Source: an uncultured bacterium
Lineage (GTDB): Bacteria; Acidobacteriota; HRBIN11; JAKEFK01
NCBI GenBank assembly: GCA_963777505.1
Contig: CAVZQN010000004.1
Span: 1,575,814-1,639,813 of the forward strand
Direction of reading: 5' to 3'
DNA length: 64,000 nucleotides
Every line of letters begins with the position of its first letter. Position 1 is the first letter of the stretch. Made by a program: the position numbers and the translations under genes. Below are positions 5,379 through 64,000 of the stretch, piece by piece. A model generated the notes under the pieces. That model saw nothing but the letters and a program-made list of their open reading frames with translations, was not told the origin of the DNA and did no database searches.

Positions 5379-8300
5379 ATGCCTGATTACTTGAAAGAAG
5401 CCAGAAAAGCTGAAAAAGAAAAAATCTTTTCGAGAGCGGGCGAATTCTACCGGCTTGCTGGAGAAATCGATTCTGCTGTTGAAATGTACATGAAGGCAGA
5501 AGACTACATTCTCGCCGCTGGTCTCATGGAACAAAAAGGCAACTGGAGTGCTGCTGCAAATCTGTATGAACGCGGCAGACAATACCGCGATGCTGCCAAG
5601 ATTTACGAAAAAATTAAAGACTATCGTTCCGCCTTTTCAATGTATGAAAAGATCAACGATTATCCACGTGCTTCAGAAATGGCGGAAAAAGCGGAAGATT
5701 ATTTCAAAGCTGCTGTTATGGCTGAAGAAGCAAAAACATTGCAACGTGCAGCACAACTTTATATTCAAGCCAACCAATATCCACAAGCTGCAAGAATTCA
5801 TTACAAATTATTGCAACAACTTGTCGATCTCACTGAAAAAAGGTTTTTTCCAGATTATGAGGCGCAACTCGCGAAGCATGCGAATACAACGGCGATGCTT
5901 TACGAACGGATTAATGATCATGCAAAAGCAGCCTACTGTTATCAACTTGCAAGAAATCATAAGAAAGCTGCAGAGTCGTATCTTGCAGATCAGAAACCTG
6001 AGAAAGCTGCAGAGATCTATCACCAGCTAAAGAGCTACAACAAAGCATTTGAGATTTTGTCAGGACTCACTGACGTTTCAAACAAGCCTCTTTTCGCGGA
6101 TGTTTGTTACCAGTTAAAGAAATTTGATAAAGCTGCAACTTTATTTCAGCAGTGCGGAAATCTTGGCCGCGCTGCTGATGCCTGTGAACAGGCAAAGCTT
6201 TATAACATCGCAGCTAAGATTTATGAAGAACTAGGAAATTTCAAACGTGCTGCAGAAATGTGTTTGAAGGCAAATAATAAGATTCGAGCGGCTGAACTTT
6301 ATGAAAAGACAGGAAACTTCGGCAACTCCGCAATTTTGTATCAGCAGTCCGGACAAAATGAAAAGGCATTGGAAAGCTATCTTGCGATCGGGCGAAGAAT
6401 TCCTGCCGCCAAAATCGCTCTTCAAATAAAAGATGAAGATAGAGCTATCTTTTTGCTTCAGGCAATTAATCCAATGGAAGAAGAATATAGAGATGCTTGT
6501 GCACTTCTTGGTGTAATTTTCGCTGAAAGAGGAATGAGTTCAGCGGCTCAGCGCAAGTTCGAAGAAGCATTGGAACGCCCCACGCTTACGAAGACAAATT
6601 TGGACATCTATTTTGATCTTGCGATGCAGCAGGAAAAAATGGGGATGCGTGCAGAAGCGGCCGACTTGTATGAGCGGATTCTTTCTGTGGATTTTTCGCA
6701 CAAGGAAGCTTCACGCCGCCTTGAAGAGTTACGAAGATCGGCTGTTTACCATATTCCGGATACATTTTACGTGCCCCAGCCTTCAGAAAGTGTCGAAAAC
6801 ATTCAGACATCCGGACAACCTCGAATTGTGGCATCGCGTTATGAGTTGGTGGAAGAAATGATTCATGATGCTTCGGGGAAAGTATATAAAGCCAGCGATC
6901 AATTTTTTCAACGTCCTGTCATGATCCGGATTCTTCCGAAGCAGGATCAAAATCTTACACAGGTGATTCTAAAATGCACTCAACTTTCATCGGCACTCAA
7001 CCACAATAACATTCTCGCAATTTATGATGGTGGGAAAGATAAAGATGATTACTTTGTTTGTACCGAATATGTAGACGGTCAAACTCTGCGGCAGTATCTT
7101 TCGGATCATTCTTTGAATATTCAGGAAGTTGTTCAAATTGCGCAACAGATTATTTTGGCCCTTGCGTATGTTCATAAGAAGGGTCTAATTCATGGAAATC
7201 TGACGCCGGAAAATATTTATATTGCAGCCGACAAAAGTGTAAAGGTCACTAATTTTGGAAATCTTGCAGTATGGGAAAAACAAAATGCGGCTGTTGTTAA
7301 GCAATACTTAAGTCCGGAACAGCTTACGGATCAGACTTCTGATGAGCGAAGTGACGTCTATTCGTTCGGGATTATTTTGTATGAGCTTGCCTATGGCAAT
7401 CCTCCTTTTTCGGGCGTGGATGTAGAACAACAACATTTGAGTGCTCTTCCTGTATTTGAAGAAACTCCTTTACACACTGTCCCGGATTTTCTGATCCGAA
7501 TTATGAAGAAGAGCCTTGCAAAGGATCGAAACAGACGTTACGCAAATGCGGATGAAATCCAAAATGAGTTTGAAACACCGGGAATCACACCAGGCGTTGT
7601 TATCAATGGCAGATATGAAATTGTCCGTGAACTTGGCGAAGGCGGTATGGGAAATGTTTATCAAGCGCGGGACAGGGACCTGGATGAAATCGTTGCATTA
7701 AAAATGTTGAAGGGGGAGATCGGCGGTGATCCTGATATGCTTCAACGTTTCATTCGTGAAATCAAAGTCGCAAGAATGATTGCTCATCCAAATGTAGTAC
7801 GCGTTTTTGATACCGGGACATACGAAGCAAATCGATACATAACGATGGAATATATCGATGGCATCAGTTTTGACCGATGGATCGATCAATCTAGAGAGAT
7901 CGATCTGAAAACTCGACTCAACATTTTGTTGAAAATCATTCAAGGCGTTCAAGCCGCTCATGCCCGTGGCATCGTTCATCGTGATTTGAAGCCTCAAAAT
8001 ATTTTGATTGATTCCGACTTCATTCCTCACATTCTCGATTTTGGAATTTCACGAGTACGAACTCACAAAGATAGTTCAACGACAGCCAAAATTGTACTTG
8101 GTTCACCAAAATATACATCTCCGGAACAAATCAGCGGACAGGAGGCGGATTATCGCAGCGATATTTATTCGCTTGGAGTCCTTACTTTCTACATGTTAAC
8201 GTTTCAAGAACCTTTCAGCGGAGATGATGTCCAGAGTATTTTGATGAAACACCTAACTTTGGAGCCTGCTTCGCCCCGCCACTTGAATCCTGAAATTCCA

Positions 8301-30300: not shown

Positions 30301-32617
30301 ATGAAAATAAAAAAAGTGGCAATTCTAGGTGCTGGAACAATGGGCTCACAAATTGCGGCTCATTTTGCAAATGCTTCGATTCCATCAATGTTGTTTGATA
30401 TGCCTGGGCTTTCAAAAGCCGGCATTGAAAAGCTGAAGAAATTAGAACCTGCACCGCTCTTTGATCCTTCCTTATCTTCATTAATAGAACCTCTTGAATT
30501 TGGACCTGACTTTCCGCGATTAATAGAAGCCGATTGGATTATTGAAGCAGTTATTGAAGATTTAGAAGCAAAACGCGCATTGCTGAACTCGGTGCTCCCG
30601 CATCTTCGCGATGATTCAGTCATTACTTCAAATACTTCTGGTTTACCTCTATCAAGTATCGCTCTTGAAATGCCGGCAGAATTTAAGAGTCGCTGGTTCG
30701 GTACACATTTTTTCAATCCACCCCGCTATCTTAAACTTTTAGAGCTGATTCCAACTTCCGATACGAACGAAAATTTATTGCATGAAATTGCAGAATTTGG
30801 CGATAAACATCTTGGCAAAGGCATTGTTTATGCAAAAGATACTCCCAACTTCATTGCGAATCGTCTTGGCACGTTCGCAGCAATGCTCGCTTTGAAAGTC
30901 ATGCTTGAAGATGGATATTCAATTGAAGAAGTGGATGTACTCACAGGTCCGATTGTCGGCCATCCAAAAACTGCAACATTCCGTTTATTCGATCTAGTTG
31001 GAATCGATATTCTTGGAATGGTGGCGCGGAATTTATTTGAAAATGTACCTGATGATGAAAACCGTGAACTTTTCAGAATTCCAATGTTCCTGGAAGACCT
31101 TCTTCAACGCGGATGGTATGGAAATAAAACCGGTCAGGGTTTTTACAAGAAAACGCCTGAAGGTATTTTGACTCTCGATCCCTCAACAATGGAGTATAGT
31201 CCGCAAAAGAAGCCAGTCTTTCCATCTTTGGAGATGGTAAAGAATATTGAAGATCCAAGAGAACGGATTGCAAACTTAGTTCGTTCAAAGGATCGCGCAG
31301 GAAGTTTTATTTGGAAAACATTATCTCCACTCTTTGCTTACGCTGCGAACTTAATTCCGGAAATTTCGGATGACATTCTGAATGTGGACAATTCAATAAA
31401 GTGGGGATTCAACTGGTCGCATGGAATTTTTGAAACGTGGGATGCGATCGGAGTTCGTAAGTCCGTTGAGCGTATGCGTGAAGAAGGAAAGCATATTCCT
31501 GCATGGATGGACTTGATGCTTGCGCAGCCGGATCCAAAGTTTTACAAAAATGAAAAAGGGAAATTGCATTGCTGGGATATTTTTGGATATGAGTATCGTC
31601 CTGTTCCGCAGCCTCAGGGTGTCTTAATTCTGGATCACATCAAACAGCAGAAGGGAACGATCAAGAAAAATGCCGGAGCCAGCTTGATCGATCTTGGAGA
31701 TGGTGTGGCCTGTCTGGAATTTCATTCAAAAATGAATGCAATCGGCGGGGATACAATCCAGATGGTGAAGTCGGCAATTGAAATTGTCGAAAAAGATTTT
31801 GAAGGCTTAGTTATAGGAAACCAGGGTGAAAATTTTTCAGCAGGAGCAAATTTAATGCTCTTGCTTTTGGAAGCGCAGGAAGAAAACTGGGACGATCTAA
31901 ATATGATAATCAAAGCATTTCAACAAATGGTGATGTCCTTGCGCTATTCAGCGCGTCCAGTTGTTGCTGCGCCATTCGGTCTTGCACTTGGAGGTGGATG
32001 CGAAGTTAGCATGGGAGCCGATGCAATCCATTCCGCAGCGGAAGTTTACACCGGACTTGTTGAAGTAGGTGTTGGATTAATTCCTGCAGGAACGGGAACG
32101 AAAGAAATATACGTAAGAAATTTTAAGAAATGTTTGCCCGGTGCTGATCCATTACCGTTTTTGCGAAATGCTTTCGAAACCAGTTGCACTTGCGAAAGCA
32201 TCACGTTCAGTACTCGATGCAAAAAGACTTGGATACTATGCCGAATCAGATACTTTTAGCATGAATGCGGATCGCGTCATTCAAGATGCGAAGAATGTTG
32301 TTTTACGACTTGCGAAAAATTATAGACAACCTCAACCACGAACCGACATTCTTCTGACTGGTCGCGCAGGATACGCTTACCTTCAAGCTGGCATTTACTT
32401 AATGCGTGAAGCTGGTTTCATCAGTGAATATGATCAAAAACTCGGTCAAAAAGTTGCGTGGATCATGACCGGTGGAGACTTGACCGAGCCCACCCGCGTA
32501 AATGAACAATTTATGCTGGATCTCGAACGCGAAGCCTTCCTTTCGCTGCTGGGTGAACCGAAAACGCAGGACAGAATTCGACATATGCTGAAGACCGGCA
32601 AACCCCTCCGGAATTAA
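30301..32617 (+). pseudogene. fadN: FadN-type bifunctional 3-hydroxyacyl-CoA dehydrogenase / enoyl-CoA hydratase, interrupted by an apparent 1-nt frameshift near a T5 run (~32158-32162)
   Basis: ORFs 30301..32259 (VAILGAGTMGSQIA; crotonase GLVIGNQGENFSAGANL) and 32141..32617 (…EREAFLSLLGEPKTQDRIRHMLKTGKPLRN) are the N- and C-terminal parts of one FadN-like protein in different frames; removing one T restores a continuous ~770 aa protein. Confidence 0.7.
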
Positions 32618-54368: not shown

Positions 54369-54953
54369 ATGATGAGACGAGATGAATATGAGGAGCTGCC
54401 TTATTTTGATTCAGATGGCAACGTCTTCGTTGAAGAATTGCGCCGTCATGACGCTTACATAAAGCGTGGTGGTAAGCTAACGGCTCCACAAATGATTAAG
54501 TATGAGAATCGTGTCATGATGCTCGTTGAGCGTTTGATGCTAATTCATGAAGCTGTAAAACCAAATAACCAGGATTGTGAAGACTTTCTTCGATCGATAG
54601 AGAATTATCATCGCCGTGGTTTATTGCCCGTGCAAGTTTATCAGCGGTTTAAGGAGAAAAATGAAGCTCAACCTGGCCATAAATCAGAAAGGGATCGTGA
54701 TCGTCTTCGAGTGATTACAGGTGGAGCGGAAGCTGATGAACGAAGTCTCTCCGATCTACCTGTGGAAACCTTGCTTGAGATGAATCAGCAGGGCGCGATT
54801 ACGAATCCAGTTTTATTTCATGAATTGAACAAGCGCGAGAAGACTGGAACAAAGCTTCCCAAAATGGGAGGTGTTCTTTGGGGGAAATATCGTACGTGGG
54901 TGGCCGAAAGAAATCGTGCTCGACGTCACGCACCACGAAACCATGAACGATAA
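54369..54953 (+). CDS. Hypothetical basic protein, co-oriented with and 11 nt overlapping the GreA-domain gene
   Basis: ATG doublet at 54369 after AGGGAG RBS; Arg/Lys-rich C-terminus; no family recognised. Confidence 0.4.
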   Translation: MMRRDEYEELPYFDSDGNVFVEELRRHDAYIKRGGKLTAPQMIKYENRVMMLVERLMLIHEAVKPNNQDCEDFLRSIENYHRRGLLPVQVYQRFKEKNEAQPGHKSERDRDRLRVITGGAEADERSLSDLPVETLLEMNQQGAITNPVLFHELNKREKTGTKLPKMGGVLWGKYRTWVAERNRARRHAPRNHER

Positions 54954-57036
54954 TCACCTTCAAGACCTCCTTCAAAACAATCGTTTTGATGAACTAGAAG
55001 AATACTGGCTGGAACTTATGGAGTCCGGCCAATTTGATCTGCAAGATTTGCTTTCGTGCGCAAAGATTCTAGGACGAAATCGAGAAAAGAAGCGCGCTGG
55101 TTTATTGATGACGTTGCTGGATGAGCATCTTCGCGAACATGGCCGCTGGGCCGATCGCCTACGCGTTCTAAAGGAAATTACTCGTCATACACTTGAGCTA
55201 AAAGAACTCGATAACATGAAGGATGCGCTTCGAGAAACTCTTGCGAAAGTTTATCCCGATAGCCCTTCATTCAACGCCGTTTTGAGATCTTTCGCATTCG
55301 ATGAAATTCTGAATGCTGAAGAGCTTGCAAAGAGTGTCGAAAAATCCGAGGAAGCATTCCCTTATGATGTCGGTCGGGTTTTTTACCAGCCGGGCTATGG
55401 AGTGGGGCGAGTTTCAGAAGTGAATCTCAAGCTCAGAGTTGCTCGAATTAATTTCGAAAAGAAGGAAGATGTTACCGTTCAATTTGGCGATCCAGAAGTT
55501 CAGCTCTTGCCGGAAGGTCATCTACTTCGCGACAAAGTAATGAATCTTGAGCAGGTTCGACAGGATGCGGAAGCAAATCCTGCAGAAATGCTAGGGAGAT
55601 TGTTGCAGACGTTTGATCGTGCGATGACAGCTGGGGAAATCAAGGATTGTTTCCATGGAATTGTCGATACCAATCAATGGTCGAGATGGTGGACAGCCGC
55701 AAAAAAGAATCCGCAGGTGGTAACAACGGGAAAGGGCGCTCAAGCCGTTTATGCCTGGAGTGGGTCGGCTTCAGAAGCTGAAGAAAGTGTTCGGAAGGAA
55801 TTTGACTCTGCGAAAGTTAAAGATCGAATTAATCTTGCGCGTACGCATGCAGCACGAAGCCAGGAACTTTCTGACCATTTTGCAGCAATCTTGCTTCAAG
55901 AATCTGTGCGGGCATATGAAGGGAAGAAATGGGATGAAGCAATTGAGCTTCTGGATTTATTTCAAAAGTGGCCCGGCAAATCGTCTCCAGCTGCTGGTTA
56001 TACTTTCGAACAAATTATTAGAGAAGCTCGTCCGGCAGAACTGCTCACCAGTGTAGAGAATCAGCCGCAGAAAACAAAAATCCTGATGGCTTATCGTGAA
56101 TTGTTACCAGATAACTGGGTACAGATTTTTACTGATCACTTTTATCGGGAAGAGAATCCGCGCCTTCTTACTTTGATGTATCAGCAATTACAAACCGATG
56201 CGCCGGAATCATCGGCCACTGCGATATTGAATCGCATAGTCGGTCATCCATCCTTGAATCCAGCTGCATTTGCCTGGTTCTGTGAAGGCGCAAGTGGAGA
56301 AAATGTTGATCCTGCTTTTGCGCAGCTTCTAGATGGAAAGTTCATGCTATCTGCGTTTGAATCAATTGATGGAACTGAGTTTTCAAAACAGCGGAACCGG
56401 GTTAAGAAGGCTGTAGAAAGCGGATTGCTGATGAATTTGCTTGCCCGTTCCATCAATCCAGATCTTGCGCAAAAAGCGGTCGATATGTTGGATCACACGA
56501 TTCACCTGGAAGATTATCGAAGAGATCGTTGGAAAAATGTGATTCGTGCACGGATTCCAGAAACGAAGAAAAAGGAAGATTGGATTTTCAGCACACGTGA
56601 AGCCTTTGAACGGAAACGCGTGGAGCTTGAACAGCTGATTAAAGTTGAGCTGCCTGTCAATCGAAAAGCAATTGGCGAAGCTGCGGCGCATGGTGATTTG
56701 AAAGAGAATCACGAATATAAGGCTGCAAGGGAACGTCAGGATTATTTGATTAACAGAGTCAGTCAACTTCAGGGTGAATTGAGTCACGTTCGCGTTCTTG
56801 AGCCGGGACAGGTTGATTGCAGCGAAGTGCGGCCTGGTACGCGGGTCGAATTAGTTCAACCCGGTGAAAAACGGATGCTTGTGACATTGCTCGGTCCCTG
56901 GGATTCCAATCCTCAGGAAGGTGTGTATTCCTATCAAGCAAGAATCGGCACGATACTTCTTGGCAAACTTCCAGGTGAAAAAGTGGAATGGAATGACGAG
57001 CACTGGACCGTAGAAAAAATCGAACCCTGGAGCTGA
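54943..57036 (+). CDS. Large (~698 aa) helical protein with C-terminal GreA/GreB-like module
   Basis: C-terminus: GDLKENHEYKAARERQDYLINRVSQLQGEL (Gre coiled-coil signature) then FKBP-like GTRVELVQPGEKRMLVTLLGPWDSNPQEGVYSYQARIGTILLGKLPGEKVEW; start set at internal ATG (MNDNHLQDLL). Confidence 0.55.
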   Translation: MNDNHLQDLLQNNRFDELEEYWLELMESGQFDLQDLLSCAKILGRNREKKRAGLLMTLLDEHLREHGRWADRLRVLKEITRHTLELKELDNMKDALRETLAKVYPDSPSFNAVLRSFAFDEILNAEELAKSVEKSEEAFPYDVGRVFYQPGYGVGRVSEVNLKLRVARINFEKKEDVTVQFGDPEVQLLPEGHLLRDKVMNLEQVRQDAEANPAEMLGRLLQTFDRAMTAGEIKDCFHGIVDTNQWSRWWTAAKKNPQVVTTGKGAQAVYAWSGSASEAEESVRKEFDSAKVKDRINLARTHAARSQELSDHFAAILLQESVRAYEGKKWDEAIELLDLFQKWPGKSSPAAGYTFEQIIREARPAELLTSVENQPQKTKILMAYRELLPDNWVQIFTDHFYREENPRLLTLMYQQLQTDAPESSATAILNRIVGHPSLNPAAFAWFCEGASGENVDPAFAQLLDGKFMLSAFESIDGTEFSKQRNRVKKAVESGLLMNLLARSINPDLAQKAVDMLDHTIHLEDYRRDRWKNVIRARIPETKKKEDWIFSTREAFERKRVELEQLIKVELPVNRKAIGEAAAHGDLKENHEYKAARERQDYLINRVSQLQGELSHVRVLEPGQVDCSEVRPGTRVELVQPGEKRMLVTLLGPWDSNPQEGVYSYQARIGTILLGKLPGEKVEWNDEHWTVEKIEPWS

Positions 57037-57820: not shown

Positions 57821-59986
57821 ATGCATATTCGCTCAATTTTTATTGTCTTCAGCGTATTCCTCGCTGGTTTTGCTTTCGCCGAAAACTTAAATGAACAGCT
57901 TCTCGAAGCTGCACGGAAAGGTGATGCAACGCTCGTCAAGTCGTTGCTTGACCGTGGTGCCGATGTCAATGCAAAAGCCCGGTATAACGTCACACCCCTT
58001 GCTTTTGCCTGCGATAAAGGGCATCTCGAAGTCGTTAAATTGTTGCTTGAACGCGGCGCAGATGTGAATGCAGAAGATACTTTTTACAAATCAACTCCTT
58101 TAACGTGGGCGGCGGAAAATGGACACATTGAAATCGCAAAACTTCTAATCCAAAAAGGGGCGAAAACTGAAGGAGCCCTAACATTCATGATTTATACCGG
58201 AAAAGAAGATATGGTCCGGATGCTTCTCGAAAACGCAAAGTTTACGCCTGAAAATATGACGGAGGCTCTTGAAGTCGCAATCTCGCAAGAGCAAAAAGGT
58301 ATTGTAAAAATTCTTGAAGACGCAGGAGCAGTACGAAAAAAGGCGGACCTTCAGGTACCACCAGAAGTTCTAAAAATGTACGCAGGCAAGTTCAAAAATA
58401 ATGAAGGAAATGAGGTGACGTTTGTTCCTGATGAAAATTCAATAAAGGGGAGTGGAGCAGGTGAGCCTTTTGTGCTTATTCCCAAAGACGATAAGTCATT
58501 TGAAATGGGTGGTGCTCCTGACTACAAATTTGTTTTTGAAGTCGCAGATGGCAAGTCAAACCGGTTAACTGTTACACGTCCGGATGGCTCTACTTCCATT
58601 TATGACAGAGTTGATGAAAAGAGTGCAGCTGCAGAAGAACCAAAAAGCACTCAGACTGCCAACACCGCCGCGCTTACAGAAAAGCGTGAGGTTACAAAGC
58701 CATTAAACTGGCCTTCATTTCGTGGAACTGAAGCTTCAGGTGTCGCAGATGGACAATATCCTCCTGCTGTATGGGATGTTGAGAAAGGAAATAACATTGC
58801 ATGGAAAACAGCAGTTCCTGGTTTAGCGAATTCATCTCCTATTGTTTGGGGCGACCGTGTATTCATAACGACTGCTATCACCAGCGATCCAGAATCAAAA
58901 TTGCGGCATGGTCTTTATGGCGATGTTAAACCCTCTGAAGATTTAACAAAACATACATGGCGTATCTATAGCATTGATAAAAAATCAGGAAAAATTTTAT
59001 GGGACAAGATTGCTTTTGAAGGCTCTCCAAACGTAAAACGCCATCCAAAATCTACCCAATCGAATTCAACACCTGTAACCGACGGTACGCATGTAGTTGC
59101 TTTGTTTGGTTATGGAGGACTGCAGTGTTATGACTTCAAAGGAAATCTATTGTGGAAGAACGATCTTGGAGTTCTAGATTCCGGCTGGTTTTATGATCCT
59201 GATTATCAATGGGGCCATGGAAGTTCTCCAGTATTGTTCGGAGATCTGGTTATTGTGCAGGCCGATTTGCAGAAAAATTCCTATATTGCCGCATTCAATC
59301 TTAAAGATGGAAAGTTAGTATGGAAAACTCTTCGTGATGAAATTCCATCATGGGGGAGTCCCACTGTAGTGAAAACAAAGAACGGAAGTCAGATCGTTAC
59401 CAATGGTACGAATTATGTTCGAGGTTACGACGCGAAATCCGGAAAAGAAGTGTGGAAGCTTAAAAATAATTCAGAAATTACAGTTCCAACTCCTTTTGTT
59501 GCTCATGATCTAATTTTTGTTACAAGCGGTTATCCTCCCATGCAACCAATCTTTGCAATTCGCACGAGTGCAACTGGAGATATTTCATTGAAAGAAGGTT
59601 CCGAATCGAATGAATATGTCGCGTGGAGTAAATCACGTGGCGGACCATACATGCCAACTCCCATTGTGTATGGTGATTATTTGTATACTTGTGCAAATAA
59701 TGGTGTTGTGGCTTGCTACAACGCGAAAACAGGCGAACGCATTTATCAAAAACGCCTTGGTGGAAAGGGCAGCGGATATGCATTTACTGCTTCACCTGTT
59801 GCAGCAGATGGAAAGCTATATTTTACGAGTGAAGATGGGGAAATTTATGTTGTTAAAGCAGGGCCTGAATATGAAGTGCTCGCGATCAACAAAATGAATG
59901 AAGTCGCAATGGCAACACCTGCTATCTCCGACGGCATGATCGTCATCCGAACGCTCGAGCATGTGTACGGAATTCAAGCCAAATGA
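57821..59986 (+). CDS. Secreted protein with N-terminal ankyrin repeats and C-terminal PQQ-like beta-propeller
   Basis: Three ankyrin repeats (LLEAARKGDATLVKSLLDRGADVNA...), then PQQ/BamB-like W-motif blades. Confidence 0.65.
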   Translation: MHIRSIFIVFSVFLAGFAFAENLNEQLLEAARKGDATLVKSLLDRGADVNAKARYNVTPLAFACDKGHLEVVKLLLERGADVNAEDTFYKSTPLTWAAENGHIEIAKLLIQKGAKTEGALTFMIYTGKEDMVRMLLENAKFTPENMTEALEVAISQEQKGIVKILEDAGAVRKKADLQVPPEVLKMYAGKFKNNEGNEVTFVPDENSIKGSGAGEPFVLIPKDDKSFEMGGAPDYKFVFEVADGKSNRLTVTRPDGSTSIYDRVDEKSAAAEEPKSTQTANTAALTEKREVTKPLNWPSFRGTEASGVADGQYPPAVWDVEKGNNIAWKTAVPGLANSSPIVWGDRVFITTAITSDPESKLRHGLYGDVKPSEDLTKHTWRIYSIDKKSGKILWDKIAFEGSPNVKRHPKSTQSNSTPVTDGTHVVALFGYGGLQCYDFKGNLLWKNDLGVLDSGWFYDPDYQWGHGSSPVLFGDLVIVQADLQKNSYIAAFNLKDGKLVWKTLRDEIPSWGSPTVVKTKNGSQIVTNGTNYVRGYDAKSGKEVWKLKNNSEITVPTPFVAHDLIFVTSGYPPMQPIFAIRTSATGDISLKEGSESNEYVAWSKSRGGPYMPTPIVYGDYLYTCANNGVVACYNAKTGERIYQKRLGGKGSGYAFTASPVAADGKLYFTSEDGEIYVVKAGPEYEVLAINKMNEVAMATPAISDGMIVIRTLEHVYGIQAK

Positions 59987-60030: not shown

Positions 60031-60882
60031 ATGATGAGAAACCGTCTCTTTCATGATGCGCGCGACTTTCAAATTCTTTTTTTATTTACCTTCCTGACAC
60101 TAGGAATATTTGAGCGGGATTGGACTCTTCGACCCATACTGATGGCGACGATTATAGTGTCCTCAGTCACCGTTCAATGGATTTGCGATCGTTTTTTCTC
60201 TTCTCCCAAGCCCTCGATTCGCAGCGCCTTGATCACGGCGATTAGCTTGTGCGCACTTCTTCGAGCCGGCTCAATTCTAACAATGATCATTGCCGGAGCA
60301 GCGTCCATCTTGAGTAAATTTCTTTTTCGTTACCGCGGAAAACATTTCTTTAACCCATCTAATTTTGGAATCATTCTTGTTTTGTTGCTCACGTCTGATG
60401 CCTGGGTATCGCCAGGGCAATGGGGGAACGAGGTTTGGCTTGTGCTTTTGTTTTTCGCAACCGGTGGCATGGTGGTTAGCAAAGTCGGACGTTGGGACAC
60501 GACAGGTGCATTTTTAGGCGGTTATATATTGCTTGAGTTTGCCCGCAATCAATGGCTCGGATGGACACCCGATGTTTTTGTTCACAAAATGATGAGCGGC
60601 TCGCTGCTTCTGTTTTCATTTTTCATGATCACAGATCCGCGTGCGATTCCTGATCGAAGAATTGCAAGAATACTCTGGTCTCTTTGTGTTGCAGTCCTTA
60701 CGTATGTTCTCCGGAATCATTATTTCCTTCCGACAGCTCCGTTTTGGGCATTATTTGTGCTGTCACCATTTACGATCGTTTTCGATCGGATATTTCCAGC
60801 CAAGCGATTTGAATGGAGTGCCAAAGAAAGCTCTGTTGTAAATCCATTAATCGCAAAGACACAAAGGGAGGTCTTGGTATGA
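60031..60882 (+). CDS. Polytopic integral membrane protein of unknown function
   Basis: ~8 hydrophobic segments; FFNPSNFGI and MITDP motifs; stop overlaps the start (ATGATG) of the next gene. Confidence 0.45.
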   Translation: MMRNRLFHDARDFQILFLFTFLTLGIFERDWTLRPILMATIIVSSVTVQWICDRFFSSPKPSIRSALITAISLCALLRAGSILTMIIAGAASILSKFLFRYRGKHFFNPSNFGIILVLLLTSDAWVSPGQWGNEVWLVLLFFATGGMVVSKVGRWDTTGAFLGGYILLEFARNQWLGWTPDVFVHKMMSGSLLLFSFFMITDPRAIPDRRIARILWSLCVAVLTYVLRNHYFLPTAPFWALFVLSPFTIVFDRIFPAKRFEWSAKESSVVNPLIAKTQREVLV

Positions 60883-62190
60883 TGCGGATTTTATTAGCTT
60901 TTGTATTTTCATTGCCTTTCATTTCATCTGCCTATGGATTTTGCGGATTTTTTGTGGCCAAGGCAGACACGAAATTATTCAACAAGGCTTCAAAGGTTGT
61001 GCTTGTTCGGGATGAAAATCGCACAGTCATTACAATGGCGAACGACTTTCAAGGAGAAGTAAAAGATTTTGCAATTGTAGTTCCGGTTCCAGTCGTTTTG
61101 AAAAAGGAACAAGTTCATATCGGTGATCCAAAAATCATTGAAAGGCTTGATGCATTCAGCGCACCGCGATTGGTCGAATACTTCGATCGTGATCCATGCC
61201 AGCCTGTTTATCCTGAAAGTGTCGGTGCGGCAATGCCGCGGAAATCGGCAGTAGCTGACCGCAAGAAGAGATTCAACAGGCGTAACGATTGAGGAGCAGT
61301 TTACTGTTGGCGAATACGACATCATGATTTTGAGTGCGACTGAATCTTCAGGACTTCAGACATGGCTGGAACAAAATGGATATAAAATTCCGAAAACCGC
61401 AACTGAATTGCTTCAGCCTTATATCCGCAGTAACACAAAGTTTTTTGTAGCGAAAGTGAATCTTGCCGAATATGACAAACGAGGTCTAACGTATCTTCGT
61501 CCAATTCAAATGGCTTTTGAATCACCTAAATTTATGCTGCCGATCCGTTTGGGAATGGCAAATGCAGATGGCGTACAGGACCTGATTGTATTTGCATTAT
61601 CTCGAGTGGGAAGAATTGAGGTTACCAATTACCGAACTGTAAATATTCCATCAGAATTCAATATTCCGATTTACGTTAAGAATGAATTCGCCGATTTCTA
61701 TAAAGCGATGTTTCAAAGAGCCTACGAAAAGGAAGGGAAGAATGCTGTGTTTGTTGAGTATGCATGGGACATGGCCTGGTGTGATCCATGTGCAGATGAT
61801 CCATTGAATCCTGAAGAGCTTCGAAAAGCGGGTGTTTTCTGGTTAGATCAGCAAAATCAAAACAATGTTTTTATTACTCGAATTCATGCGCGTTATACAC
61901 GTCCGCTATTTCCTGAGGATTTCGTATTTCAGGCAACTCCTAATCGTCAGAATTATCAAGGACGTTATATTTTGCAGCATCCATTCAAAGGGAAAATTGC
62001 GTGTGACCAGGGCCGTCAGTATTTAAGAGAAGTGGCTAAACGGCAGGAGAAAGAAGCACAACAACTGGCAAGTTATACAGGGTGGGACATTAATGAAATT
62101 CGTAAGAAAATGGGACTTCAACAAGCTGTGAATAAACCCGAAGATGAGTCATGGTGGGATAAAATCTTTTCGGATGAAAAGGATGACTAA
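60879..62190 (+). pseudogene. Secreted DUF2330-like protein, paralog copy 1, split by an apparent frameshift near 61255-61262
   Basis: ORFs 60879..61292 and 61324..62190 align with the N- and C-terminal halves of the downstream paralog (62217..63530). An alternate frame across 61255-61320 reads TARRDSTGVTIEEQFTVGEYDIMILS, matching RAREDALGIKIEAQFTVGEYDIIILS in copy 2. Confidence 0.65.
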
Positions 62191-62216
62191 CCGCAAAGAC
62201 ACAGAGGGAGGTTGAT

Positions 62217-63530
62217 ATGAAGCGGATTGTTCTAGCTTTTTTATTTACAACGATCATAGTTAGCTCTGCTTACGGCTTTTGCGGTTTTTTCGTAGCAAAG
62301 GCTGATACAAAGCTATTCAACAAGGCTTCGAAAGTTGTTTTAGCCCGTGATGGTGATCGCACTGTCCTTACAATGGCAAACGATTTTCAAGGTGAAGTCA
62401 AAGACTTTGCGATTGTCGTTCCTGTTCCTGTTGTATTGAAGAAGGAACAAGTTCACATCGGCGACCCGAAAATGATTGAACGTCTTGATGCATTCAGTGC
62501 GCCGCGGCTCGTAGAATATTTTGATTCGGATCCGTGTATGCCTATTCCTCCGCAACCAGTTCCCATGCCTTCGGCTATGGCAGACAAAAGCGGCGCGAGC
62601 AGAGCGCGTGAAGATGCTCTTGGAATCAAGATTGAGGCTCAATTTACCGTTGGTGAATATGACATCATTATTTTGAGCGCGAAAGAATCATCGGGGCTTC
62701 AAATTTGGCTCAATGAAAATGGCTACAAAATGCCACCAGGTGCAGCAGAACTTCTGCAGCCTTACATCCGAAGCAATACAAAGTTCTTCGTTGCGAAAGT
62801 GAATCTTGCCGAATATGACAAACGAGGTCTTACCTTTTTGCGGCCATTACAGATGGCATTCGAATCGCCTAAGTTTATGCTGCCGATCCGTCTTGGAATG
62901 GCTAATGCAGATAAAGAACAAGATCTTGTCGTGTTTGCTTTATCACCGCAAGGAAGAACAGAGGTAACAAATTACAGAACTGTGAATATCCCTTCCAACG
63001 TCGAAATCCCCGTTTATGTAAAGAACGAATTTTCAGAATTCTATCGTTCAATGTTTCAGCGTGCCTATGAGAAAGAAGGCAGGAATGCTGTATTTGTGGA
63101 ATATGCATGGGACATGGCATGGTGCGATCCATGTGCCGCCGATCCTTTAACACCTGAAGAACTGCGAAAAGCCGGTGTGTTCTGGGAAAGCGAGCAAGGT
63201 TCAAGCAATGTTTTTATCACGCGTATTCATGCGCGATATACGCGAGATAAATTTCCTGAGGATCTCGTATTTCAGACAACTCCGAATCGAGAAAACTACC
63301 AGGGACGTTACATCATGCGGCATCCATTTAAAGGAAAAGTCGCCTGCGATCAGGGACGCCGGTACATGCGTGAACTTTCCACAAGACAGGAAAAAGAAGC
63401 GCAAACACTTGCTTCACTGACAGGATGGGACATCAATGAGGTTAGAAAAAAGATGGGACTCAACCAGGCGAAAGGCAAACCTGAAGATGAATCCTGGTGG
63501 GACAAAATTTTTGACGATGATGAACAGTAG
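62217..63530 (+). CDS. Secreted DUF2330-like protein, paralog copy 2 (437 aa, intact)
   Basis: Signal peptide; WDMAWCDPCAADPL motif; about 75% identical to copy 1; the DUF2330 name is from memory and unverified. Confidence 0.5.
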   Translation: MKRIVLAFLFTTIIVSSAYGFCGFFVAKADTKLFNKASKVVLARDGDRTVLTMANDFQGEVKDFAIVVPVPVVLKKEQVHIGDPKMIERLDAFSAPRLVEYFDSDPCMPIPPQPVPMPSAMADKSGASRAREDALGIKIEAQFTVGEYDIIILSAKESSGLQIWLNENGYKMPPGAAELLQPYIRSNTKFFVAKVNLAEYDKRGLTFLRPLQMAFESPKFMLPIRLGMANADKEQDLVVFALSPQGRTEVTNYRTVNIPSNVEIPVYVKNEFSEFYRSMFQRAYEKEGRNAVFVEYAWDMAWCDPCAADPLTPEELRKAGVFWESEQGSSNVFITRIHARYTRDKFPEDLVFQTTPNRENYQGRYIMRHPFKGKVACDQGRRYMRELSTRQEKEAQTLASLTGWDINEVRKKMGLNQAKGKPEDESWWDKIFDDDEQ

Positions 63531-63559: not shown

Positions 63560-64000
63560 TTAACGAAGCCGCCGAAATTGTGTAGGAGTCATGCCAGTAA
63601 AGCGTTTGAATATTTTTGTAAAGTGACTTTGATCACAAAATCCAGACGCTAACGCAATCTCCGCAATTGAATTGTGTCCGTGAAGTAAATTGCAGGCATG
63701 CTCAACTCTTAAGCTCCGTACATATTCTGCAACTGTCGTTCCATAGAATTTGCGGAAGGATCTAGCCAGATGAACAGGATGGACACCCGCGCCTAAGGCT
63801 AATTGTTTAAAAGAAAAATTCTCCACGAAACAATCCTGAAGATGAGCTTTCGTATCCTTCAACCATCGCGGGATTTCTTTCGAAGCGATACGGAATTCTC
63901 TCAATCCCGCAGCCATTAATTCCATTGAAAGTCCTTCAATAGCAAGGCTTGAAAGATTGTCCGGAAATTTGAACTCCTGAAATATCCGCATAGCAATCAA
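63560..64000 (-). CDS. AraC-family transcriptional regulator, C-terminal HTH part (5' end beyond window)
   Basis: Twin HTH: GVHPVHLARSFRKFYGTTVAEYVRSLRV...SIAEIALASGFCDQSHFTKIFKRFTGMTP. Confidence 0.8.
   Translation of the reverse strand: MIAMRIFQEFKFPDNLSSLAIEGLSMELMAAGLREFRIASKEIPRWLKDTKAHLQDCFVENFSFKQLALGAGVHPVHLARSFRKFYGTTVAEYVRSLRVEHACNLLHGHNSIAEIALASGFCDQSHFTKIFKRFTGMTPTQFRRLR

Follow-up and report, generated by a model that had tools for sequence, protein, structure and literature searches.

A conserved RnfD-like/DUF2330 gene pair with two retained DUF2330 paralogs, one bearing a one-base lesion, in an uncultured Acidobacteriota-like bacterium

Here we analyze a stretch of 64,000 nucleotides (nt) of DNA from an uncultured bacterium of the Acidobacteriota (contig CAVZQN010000004.1 of GenBank assembly GCA_963777505.1, forward strand positions 1,575,814 to 1,639,813), which we call the window, and in particular three consecutive genes on its + strand. 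The first one, for a polytopic membrane protein of the RnfD/NqrB family, spans 60031–60882 (283 amino acids). It is followed by two tandem genes for proteins of the DUF2330 family: paralog 1 (copy 1, 60879–62190), which is interrupted by a +1 frameshift and would encode 436 amino acids if one base were removed, and paralog 2 (copy 2, 62217–63530), which is intact and encodes a predicted exported protein of 437 amino acids. The stop codon of the membrane protein gene (TGA, 60880–60882) falls inside the ATGATG start of copy 1, an overlap of the kind that is typical of translational coupling. Ahead of each DUF2330 gene stands almost the same 20-nt leader. The first instance, CGCAAAGACACAAAGGGAGG at 60852–60871, includes the Shine-Dalgarno sequence AGGGAGG and lies within the codons for the variable C-terminal tail of the membrane protein; the second, CGCAAAGACACAGAGGGAGG at 62192–62211, lies in the 26-nt spacer between the two paralogs. 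The base that breaks paralog 1 is an extra A at 61269, in a variable and disordered linker region. Our reading of this locus, to which we give a probability of about 0.55, is that of a three-gene operon-like unit built on a conserved RnfD-like/DUF2330 module, in which both paralogs have been retained, the damage to paralog 1 amounts to one base, and the products form a periplasm-facing complex, possibly one of thiol-redox function.

The family assignments are clear. Copy 2 matches the Pfam family PF10092 (DUF2330) with an E-value of 5e-74 and 249 bits (cut-off 24.7), over profile positions 4–278 of 279, and the two pieces of copy 1 match it with 96 and 137 bits over positions 4–108 and 124–278. 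The membrane protein matches PF03116 (NQR2_RnfD_RnfE) with an E-value of 2e-16 and 60.5 bits (cut-off 27.7), its best stretch covering profile positions 172–295 of 296. An earlier note, made by a model from the sequence alone, had described two DUF2330-like secreted proteins preceded by an overlapping polytopic membrane protein gene that ends in the ATGATG start of copy 1. All of this holds, with PF10092 above its gathering threshold at near full-length coverage. The close similarity that the note reported for the two copies holds as well, at 78% identity in DNA and 79% in protein in place of its approximate 75%.

At loci of Crinalium and Calothrix, found by means of homologs of the membrane protein, and at a locus of Aphanothece, found by means of a DUF2330 homolog, an RnfD-like gene is placed immediately 5′ of the DUF2330 gene, and the neighborhoods are otherwise unrelated. 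A linkage scan, using one genome per species, covered 80 DUF2330 loci, mostly from cyanobacteria. We took as informative those loci with at least 1 kb of upstream sequence, and we detected the RnfD-like gene using hidden Markov models built in this analysis. We observe the RnfD-like gene directly upstream and on the same strand in 72 of the 75 informative loci. The adjacency, usually with overlapping stop and start codons, is also present in an alphaproteobacterial locus, in a Binatia metagenome-assembled genome, and in an 8.4-Mb genome. When all open reading frames (ORFs) from 84 loci are clustered all versus all, DUF2330 and the RnfD-like family are the only shared families, and none of these 84 loci has an rnfA, rnfB, rnfC, rnfE, rnfG or nqr gene adjacent.

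The two proteins also occur as one. An exhaustive search for representative sequences resulted in 5603 DUF2330 clusters, and we found fusions of an N-terminal RnfD-like domain to a C-terminal DUF2330 domain in 12 protein clusters (10 of the best 150, plus P0422 and P0524). The fusion junctions keep a hydrophobic signal-like helix and a small-residue (A-x-A) site before the FCGF motif of DUF2330, and the P0422 fusion is read from an uninterrupted ORF on its contig DNA. The layout of the fusions also fits a membrane domain whose C-terminus is in the cytoplasm, with DUF2330 in the periplasm.

Because the adjacency is conserved across phyla and the fusions are recurrent, there is strong evidence that the RnfD-like and DUF2330 proteins work together physically; the fusions in particular predict, with unusual clarity, that the two form a physical complex. 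The RnfD-like and DUF2330 genes are a conserved two-gene module, found mainly in cyanobacteria and in this Acidobacteriota-like lineage, whose DUF2330 proteins are 55–65% identical to those of cyanobacteria; outside these clades we have single loci in Alphaproteobacteria and Binatia. The suggestion of the earlier note that a membrane protein and a secreted protein form a pair, with no function assigned, is thus borne out by the 72 of 75 loci and the fusions in 12 clusters, and the neighborhood analysis of the membrane protein shows that its linkage to DUF2330 is conserved in other genomes. A frameshift and a duplication are ordinary events; the module that underlies them is widespread, highly conserved and uncharacterized.

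Some individual loci deserve mention. In the alphaproteobacterial locus (L089), a DsbA-family gene sits directly downstream of the pair (6515–7168), and in the 8.4-Mb genome (L090) an AhpC/TSA-redoxin gene is found about 2 kb upstream of it (1635–2228). These thiol-redox neighbors are anecdotal and not conserved. A distant DUF2330 member, P0469, sits at a contig end.

What kind of protein is the membrane partner? PF03116 is its sole Pfam match even at E-values up to 10, and it scores below the NCBIfam cut-offs, with 34.1 bits versus the 207 of rnfD (TIGR01946) and 29.3 versus the 415 of the RsxD equivalog. Residues 25–119 align to residues 36–133 of the Azotobacter RnfD (8ahx_D) and residues 127–260 to its residues 210–342, skipping RnfD residues 134–209. 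Both membrane halves thus align to Azotobacter RnfD, as they do to E. coli RsxD, including the motifs K-H-x-F-N-P and T-D-P. Compared with RsxD, the window protein lacks about 75 residues, and so do five relatives that come from cyanobacteria and other lineages. Among the residues lacking is DGISQATPLD, in which RsxD has its S-x-A-T flavinylation motif; the flavinylated residue of E. coli RsxD is Thr-187. The window protein, unlike RnfD, NqrB and RsxD with which it shares PF03116, is a relative without the loop that carries covalent flavin mononucleotide (FMN). Its gene is also found outside any rnfABCDGE or nqrABCDEF operon, next to the DUF2330 genes and to a gene for an ankyrin-repeat (Ank) and PQQ-like protein that we describe below. 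Since the FMN site and an rnf or nqr operon are both missing, and the scores do not reach the curated cut-offs, the protein is not a bona fide RnfD or NqrB.

Invariant in the family alignment of the membrane protein are a DAWVSPGQWG loop and many charged or polar residues, and the motifs K-H-F-F-N-P and T-D-P-R are kept as well; no cysteine is invariant. Since both termini are rich in lysine and arginine and there are about ten hydrophobic segments, the predicted topology is N-in and C-in, with both ends cytoplasmic. The module shows a reuse of the RnfD/NqrB membrane core with neither covalent flavin nor any Rnf or Nqr partner.

The closest known architecture is that of a two-subunit "Nqr/Rnf-like" complex, which has an NqrB/RnfD-like subunit without the flavinylated threonine and one extracytoplasmic subunit (bioRxiv 10.1101/2024.03.13.584918). 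As in these two-subunit complexes (Meheust et al. 2021; Huang et al.), here too the NqrB/RnfD-like subunit stands alone, the flavinylated threonine is not conserved, and a single extracytoplasmic partner gene is adjoining, outside a full nqr or rnf operon. On the other hand, the membrane protein here has only 283 amino acids, with PF03116 alone and no cytosolic NAD-binding domain, and the partner is DUF2330 instead of an NqrC/RnfG-like protein, and has no FMN_bind domain or flavinylation motif. As two of the features that define that system are missing, the resemblance is only in architecture, and the module extends the "Nqr/Rnf-like" idea to a cofactor-poor form with an entirely different periplasmic subunit. 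We found no mention of DUF2330 or PF10092 in the literature we searched.

Turning to the DUF2330 proteins, their hydrophobic N-terminus and the signal-peptidase-type site before FCGF predict export. Among 330 homologs with the motif FCGF[FY]V, 329 have A, S or G at −1, and all but two have A, V, L, S, G or T at −3. We infer that the protein is exported by Sec and cut by signal peptidase I after A-x-A/G, such that the mature protein would start with F-C-G-F. We rejected the reading of the FCGF cysteine as that of a lipoprotein, given that its −1 residue is Phe and that the A-x-A site lies one residue earlier. In the DUF2330 proteins of the window, a conserved SWWDKIF motif is followed by an acidic tail at the C-terminus. 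Some cyanobacterial members (P0231 and P0234, of the Crinalium type) instead close with a hydrophobic stretch and then RKRRRK (LSLVAPLVLIMMPTRKRRRK), which resembles a C-terminal membrane anchor or a sorting signal.

Paralog 2 has five conserved cysteines: C22, C107, C303, C306 and C377. Using 151 representatives, we observe three different behaviors. C107 and C377 are present in essentially all of them, and so they likely form a structural disulfide. C303 and C306, in the motif W-C-D-P-C, are lost jointly in about ten of the 151 clusters, and thus make up a pair. C22, the cysteine of FCGF, is replaced alone in about ten clusters, where G, S, V or Y takes its place, and thus it is probably unpaired. 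By sequence inspection and Pfam, DUF2330 shows no twin-arginine signal, no CxxCH, and no FMN_bind or flavinylation motif. The partner genes match only PF10092 in Pfam, even at E-values up to 10, and the long DUF2330 proteins (600–1250 amino acids) have no additional Pfam domains.

We built an AlphaFold2 model of copy 2 with a predicted local distance difference test score (pLDDT) of 87.3 and a predicted template modeling score (pTM) of 0.83, using an alignment of 147 sequences with 35–97% identity. A model from 50 close homologs (at least 62% identity) had a pLDDT of just 47.8 and was discarded, and adding homologs with 35–60% identity remedied it. A profile search with DUF2330 against the PDB sequences found nothing. 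A Foldseek structural search against the PDB has as its best match the baculovirus protein P35 (1p35_A), with an E-value of 5e-4, probability 1.0, and template modeling (TM) scores of 0.27 and 0.36. Against the viral structures in BFVD, the best matches are a Tupanvirus protein (E-value 9.5e-5), a granulovirus P35 (9.3e-4) and a p49 (1.2e-3). The first of these, the uncharacterized A0A6N1NI77 of Tupanvirus soda lake, is ahead of both P35 and p49 as the best viral structural match, and could link the bacterial and the baculoviral folds. We treat the likeness of the DUF2330 model to P35 as a lead.

Why are there two DUF2330 genes, and is one of them dying? The earlier note read the tandem as one of duplication and decay, with copy 1 broken. 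The comparison of the two copies does not show decay. Between them, dN is 0.165 and dS is 2.2 (saturated), for an omega of 0.075, which indicates purifying selection, and omega is 0.059 downstream of the frameshift. In a neighbor-joining (NJ) tree, the two copies of the window fall in two separate clades, each of which includes one gene from a sister lineage (L002, with a membrane protein 79% identical to that of the window) and one from each of five other two-copy contigs. A close relative, L088 (98.5% DNA identity to the window over 5785 nt), and two JGI contigs also have the RnfD-like gene followed by copy 1 and then copy 2, neither of them broken; the L088 copy 2 protein is identical to that of the window. 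Given the dS of about 2.2, the separate orthologous clades, and both copies being intact in at least six related contigs, the duplication is ancient and both paralogs have been kept, both under strong purifying selection. In the same NJ tree we observe independent tandem DUF2330 duplications in several cyanobacteria (L007, L022, L018/L053, L080 and L085), and one 963-residue protein, P0261, has two DUF2330 domains. These recurrences hint that it may be useful to have two DUF2330 copies, perhaps as a heteromer.

The lesion itself is minimal. The first frame of copy 1 stops at 61290–61292, and the +1 frame is open from 61255 to 62190. The earlier note was right about the break, which it placed near 61255–61262; the lesion is found a few bases on, as the single extra A at 61269 (AAGAAG[A]GATTC). 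With the extra A the sequence reads AAGAAGAGATT, and without it AAGAAGGATT at 61264–61273. Deleting it results in a full-length protein of 436 amino acids, identical across the junction to the product of another related assembly, L001 (ENA ERZ25039591 contig_90900, 97.6% DNA identity to the window). We compared the window with three related assemblies, L001, L088 and L002. The extra A is absent from L001 and L088, and is the sole indel between the window and L088 in 5785 nt.

Could paralog 1 be nonetheless a genuine pseudogene, caught in a tandem pair that duplicates and then decays? In the window as given, the frameshift does split the gene, the C-terminal piece would have no signal peptide, and the insertion is outside any homopolymer. 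Still, we find this doubtful. L001, L088, L002 and the P0122 contigs (these last compared by gene order only) all have an unbroken paralog 1, both paralog clades are kept across lineages, and the low omega extends beyond the lesion. Moreover, the 15 codons in which copy 1 differs between the window and L001 are 14 synonymous changes and one L to I, and 9 of those 14 synonymous changes are downstream of the lesion. That predominance of synonymous changes on both sides indicates that copy 1 was under purifying selection until essentially now. The lesion maps to a variable linker, and the equivalent loop of copy 2 (residues 113–135) has a pLDDT below 50 in the AlphaFold model. The break in paralog 1 is thus a one-base lesion private to this assembly, at most a very recent and strain-private loss.

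L001 is ridden with indels: it has 41 gap positions in a 7.5-kb BLAST alignment with the window, its Ank/PQQ gene is split in five pieces, and its DUF2330 copy 2 in three. L001, L088, L002 and L090 have a common ENA accession series and the same contig_N style of naming, and a genome-collection locus with the same naming is labeled MFD MAG, which suggests that these are long-read assemblies. With L001 as an example of how many false indels such an assembly can have, we lean toward a consensus error of long-read assembly as the origin of the frameshift. A real, very recent and strain-private inactivation is the other possibility, and a substantial one, because the inserted A splits a GG dinucleotide without lengthening a homopolymer, which is not the error most typical of nanopore reads, and makes a real mutation plausible.

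What would the complex do? In the arrangement that we propose, an RnfD-like membrane subunit of about ten helices and a DUF2330 on its periplasmic face would make a stoichiometric complex, which in this lineage might hold two different DUF2330 subunits. The invariant DAWVSPGQWG loop, which replaces the FMN loop, is the candidate docking site. As for the function, we tentatively favor a periplasm-facing thiol/disulfide redox module, in which the RnfD-like subunit would be the membrane conduit, by way of a site for a non-covalently bound flavin or for a quinone, and DUF2330 would supply the cysteines, namely its W-C-D-P-C pair and the putative unpaired cysteine at mature position 2.

The CxPC thiol-disulfide oxidoreductases of the TlpA, ResA and CcmG type have membrane redox partners, such as DsbD/CcdA or DsbB/VKOR, and thus they likewise combine a periplasmic W-C-x-P-C protein with a polytopic partner. 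The resemblance is one of motif only. The fold of DUF2330, unlike theirs, is not thioredoxin-like in our model, and the membrane partner, in contrast to DsbD/CcdA and DsbB/VKOR, has no conserved cysteines, nor any homology to DsbB, VKOR or CcdA. A thiol relay of the DsbD/CcdA kind was for this reason, the missing conserved cysteine in the membrane protein, rejected.

Several observations weigh against a redox complex of this sort. We recognized no NAD-binding, FMN_bind, flavinylation, heme or Fe-S motif, and no redox input; the membrane subunit does not contribute a conserved cysteine; the modeled fold around CxPC does not look like that of a thioredoxin; and the CxPC pair is missing in about 8% of representative clusters, so it may be non-essential. 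As for the complex itself, the argument for it comes from linkage and fusion, and three cyanobacterial loci (L046, L066 and L083) do not have an RnfD-like gene in the 5 kb upstream of DUF2330.

Nearly as likely as the redox function is one in transport without any redox chemistry, in which the RnfD-like protein, an Nqr/Rnf core without redox cofactors, would conduct ions or small solutes as a channel or transporter, and DUF2330 would be its cap in the periplasm or a partner that binds the substrate. In favor are the loss of the FMN loop and the absence of any other cofactor module, the many invariant polar and charged residues in or near the membrane segments, and the retention of the FNP and TDP motifs. 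NqrB has been described as resembling urea and ammonium channels, which we also count in favor of a channel. On the other hand, such a channel, with a hypothetical pore and substrate, leaves the conserved CxPC pair and the free cysteine unexplained.

The structural lead from P35 raises a different function, in which DUF2330 would be a bacterial counterpart of P35/P49: a mechanism-based protease trap, with a variable bait loop and a cysteine near the N-terminus, which the RnfD-like protein would keep at the inner membrane. In P35-type inhibition, the target protease cleaves the reactive-site loop, and the N-terminal cysteine traps the acyl-enzyme. The P35 sequence in the PDB starts (M)CVIFPVEID and the predicted mature DUF2330 starts F-C-G-F-F-V-A-K-A-D, both with the cysteine at mature position 2. 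C22 behaves as unpaired, and DUF2330 has a variable, disordered loop of about 25 residues, as P35/P49 (SCOP b.28.1) have a long exposed loop. Even so, we consider the trap improbable. No relationship is detectable in sequence: an hhalign comparison of DUF2330 and P35 has a probability of 0.2%, and the Pfam family for P35 is not matched at E-values up to 10. The TM-scores are just 0.27–0.36, and the equivalence of the N-terminal strand and of the loop is a presumption. DUF2330 is about 140 residues longer than P35/P49, with extra helices, and is predicted to be periplasmic with a membrane partner. After cleavage its cysteine would be residue 2 and not a free N-terminal residue, and a trap gives no reason for the obligatory coupling to an RnfD-like protein.

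A broader version of this idea has an outside chance: that DUF2330 proteins are cellular relatives of the P35/P49 fold which, with a flavin-less RnfD/NqrB partner, would make an unrecognized two-component envelope system, be it redox or trap. The P35 superfamily (SCOP b.28.1) is catalogued as virus-specific (PMC4643759; PMC5671483), and p35/p49 are given the origin "Virus" (PMC4411684). If DUF2330 does have a P35-like fold, it would be the first cellular protein structurally related to a family that is considered to lack homologs in cells (PMC4643759, PMC5671483, PMC4411684). The rest of the probability goes to a function other than redox, conduit or P35-like trap.

The weakest alternative concerns paralog 1 again: although a +1 shift within the overlap of about 37 nt between its two frames (61255–61292) would make the full-length protein, we reject programmed ribosomal frameshifting as next to impossible, because one uninterrupted frame codes for the protein in close relatives, the arrangement is not conserved, and AAG-AAG-AGA has no recognizable slippery or stall motif.

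We now come back to the leaders. We observe the 20-mer CGCAAAGACACA[A/G]AGGGAGG at exactly two places of the window (60852 and 62192), when none is expected (100 shuffles). The two instances differ at one base inside the 20-mer and at one more just upstream. The recurrence ahead of each copy is therefore as the earlier note described it, except that the spacer to the ATG, given there as six nt, measures 7 nt in copy 1 and 5 nt in copy 2. The similarity extends into the genes. The leader is identical in 22 of 24 positions between copies 1 and 2, and codons 1–15 match at 12 of 15 third positions; in codons 16–105 the third positions are near saturation (5–10 of 15 identical per block). This delimits a homogenized tract of about 70 nt, at 60852–60925 and 62192–62262. 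Was the motif duplicated together with the gene, as had been proposed? The recurrence is real, and it is found only in this species: in the sister lineage L002, the two leaders are unrelated beyond a GGAGG Shine-Dalgarno, and the homogenized tract is absent. In a metagenome collection the exact 20-mer has five matches, four of them unrelated to DUF2330, and a fifth that is unreadable at a contig end. Absent from L002, and unrelated to DUF2330 in the readable metagenome matches, the leader is a species-specific homogenized tract and not a conserved regulatory element. It could come from a short 5′ gene conversion or from selection on the translation-initiation region. The leader upstream of copy 1 overlaps the C-terminal tail of the membrane protein, a variable part of that family.

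Upstream of the module, and ending 44 nt before it, is a + strand gene (57821–59986) for an exported protein of 721 amino acids, with N-terminal ankyrin repeats and a PQQ/BamB-like beta-propeller (Pfam Ank_2 and PQQ_2). The same Ank/PQQ gene is upstream in L002, L088 and the P0122 contigs, and we do not find it at the loci that we examined in cyanobacteria, Alphaproteobacteria and Binatia. It is thus a neighbor conserved only inside this lineage, and it may be co-transcribed with the module. Promoter and terminator scans gave signals at the level of shuffled sequences, and Rfam and tRNA scans gave no matches. Downstream, the convergent AraC regulator that had been noticed before is indeed present (63560–64000, − strand, with HTH_18 and HTH_AraC matches), truncated by the end of the window. 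This gene is shared with L088 and missing in L002 and in more distant loci, so it is outside the conserved module.

Two other genes of the window are worth recording. A FadB-like gene (30301–32617, + strand) with 3HCDH and ECH domains has an ECH match that ends at profile position 138 of 251 near the protein end, and is followed by an overlapping ORF of 158 amino acids in another frame, with no family match; this may be a second frameshift of this assembly, which could not be substantiated. The gene at 54871–57036 (+ strand) encodes a protein of 721 amino acids in which a long unannotated N-terminal region precedes a GreA/GreB domain pair that makes up the last 150 residues or so, and its L002 ortholog also has a match to PF27167 (HTH_GRAD).

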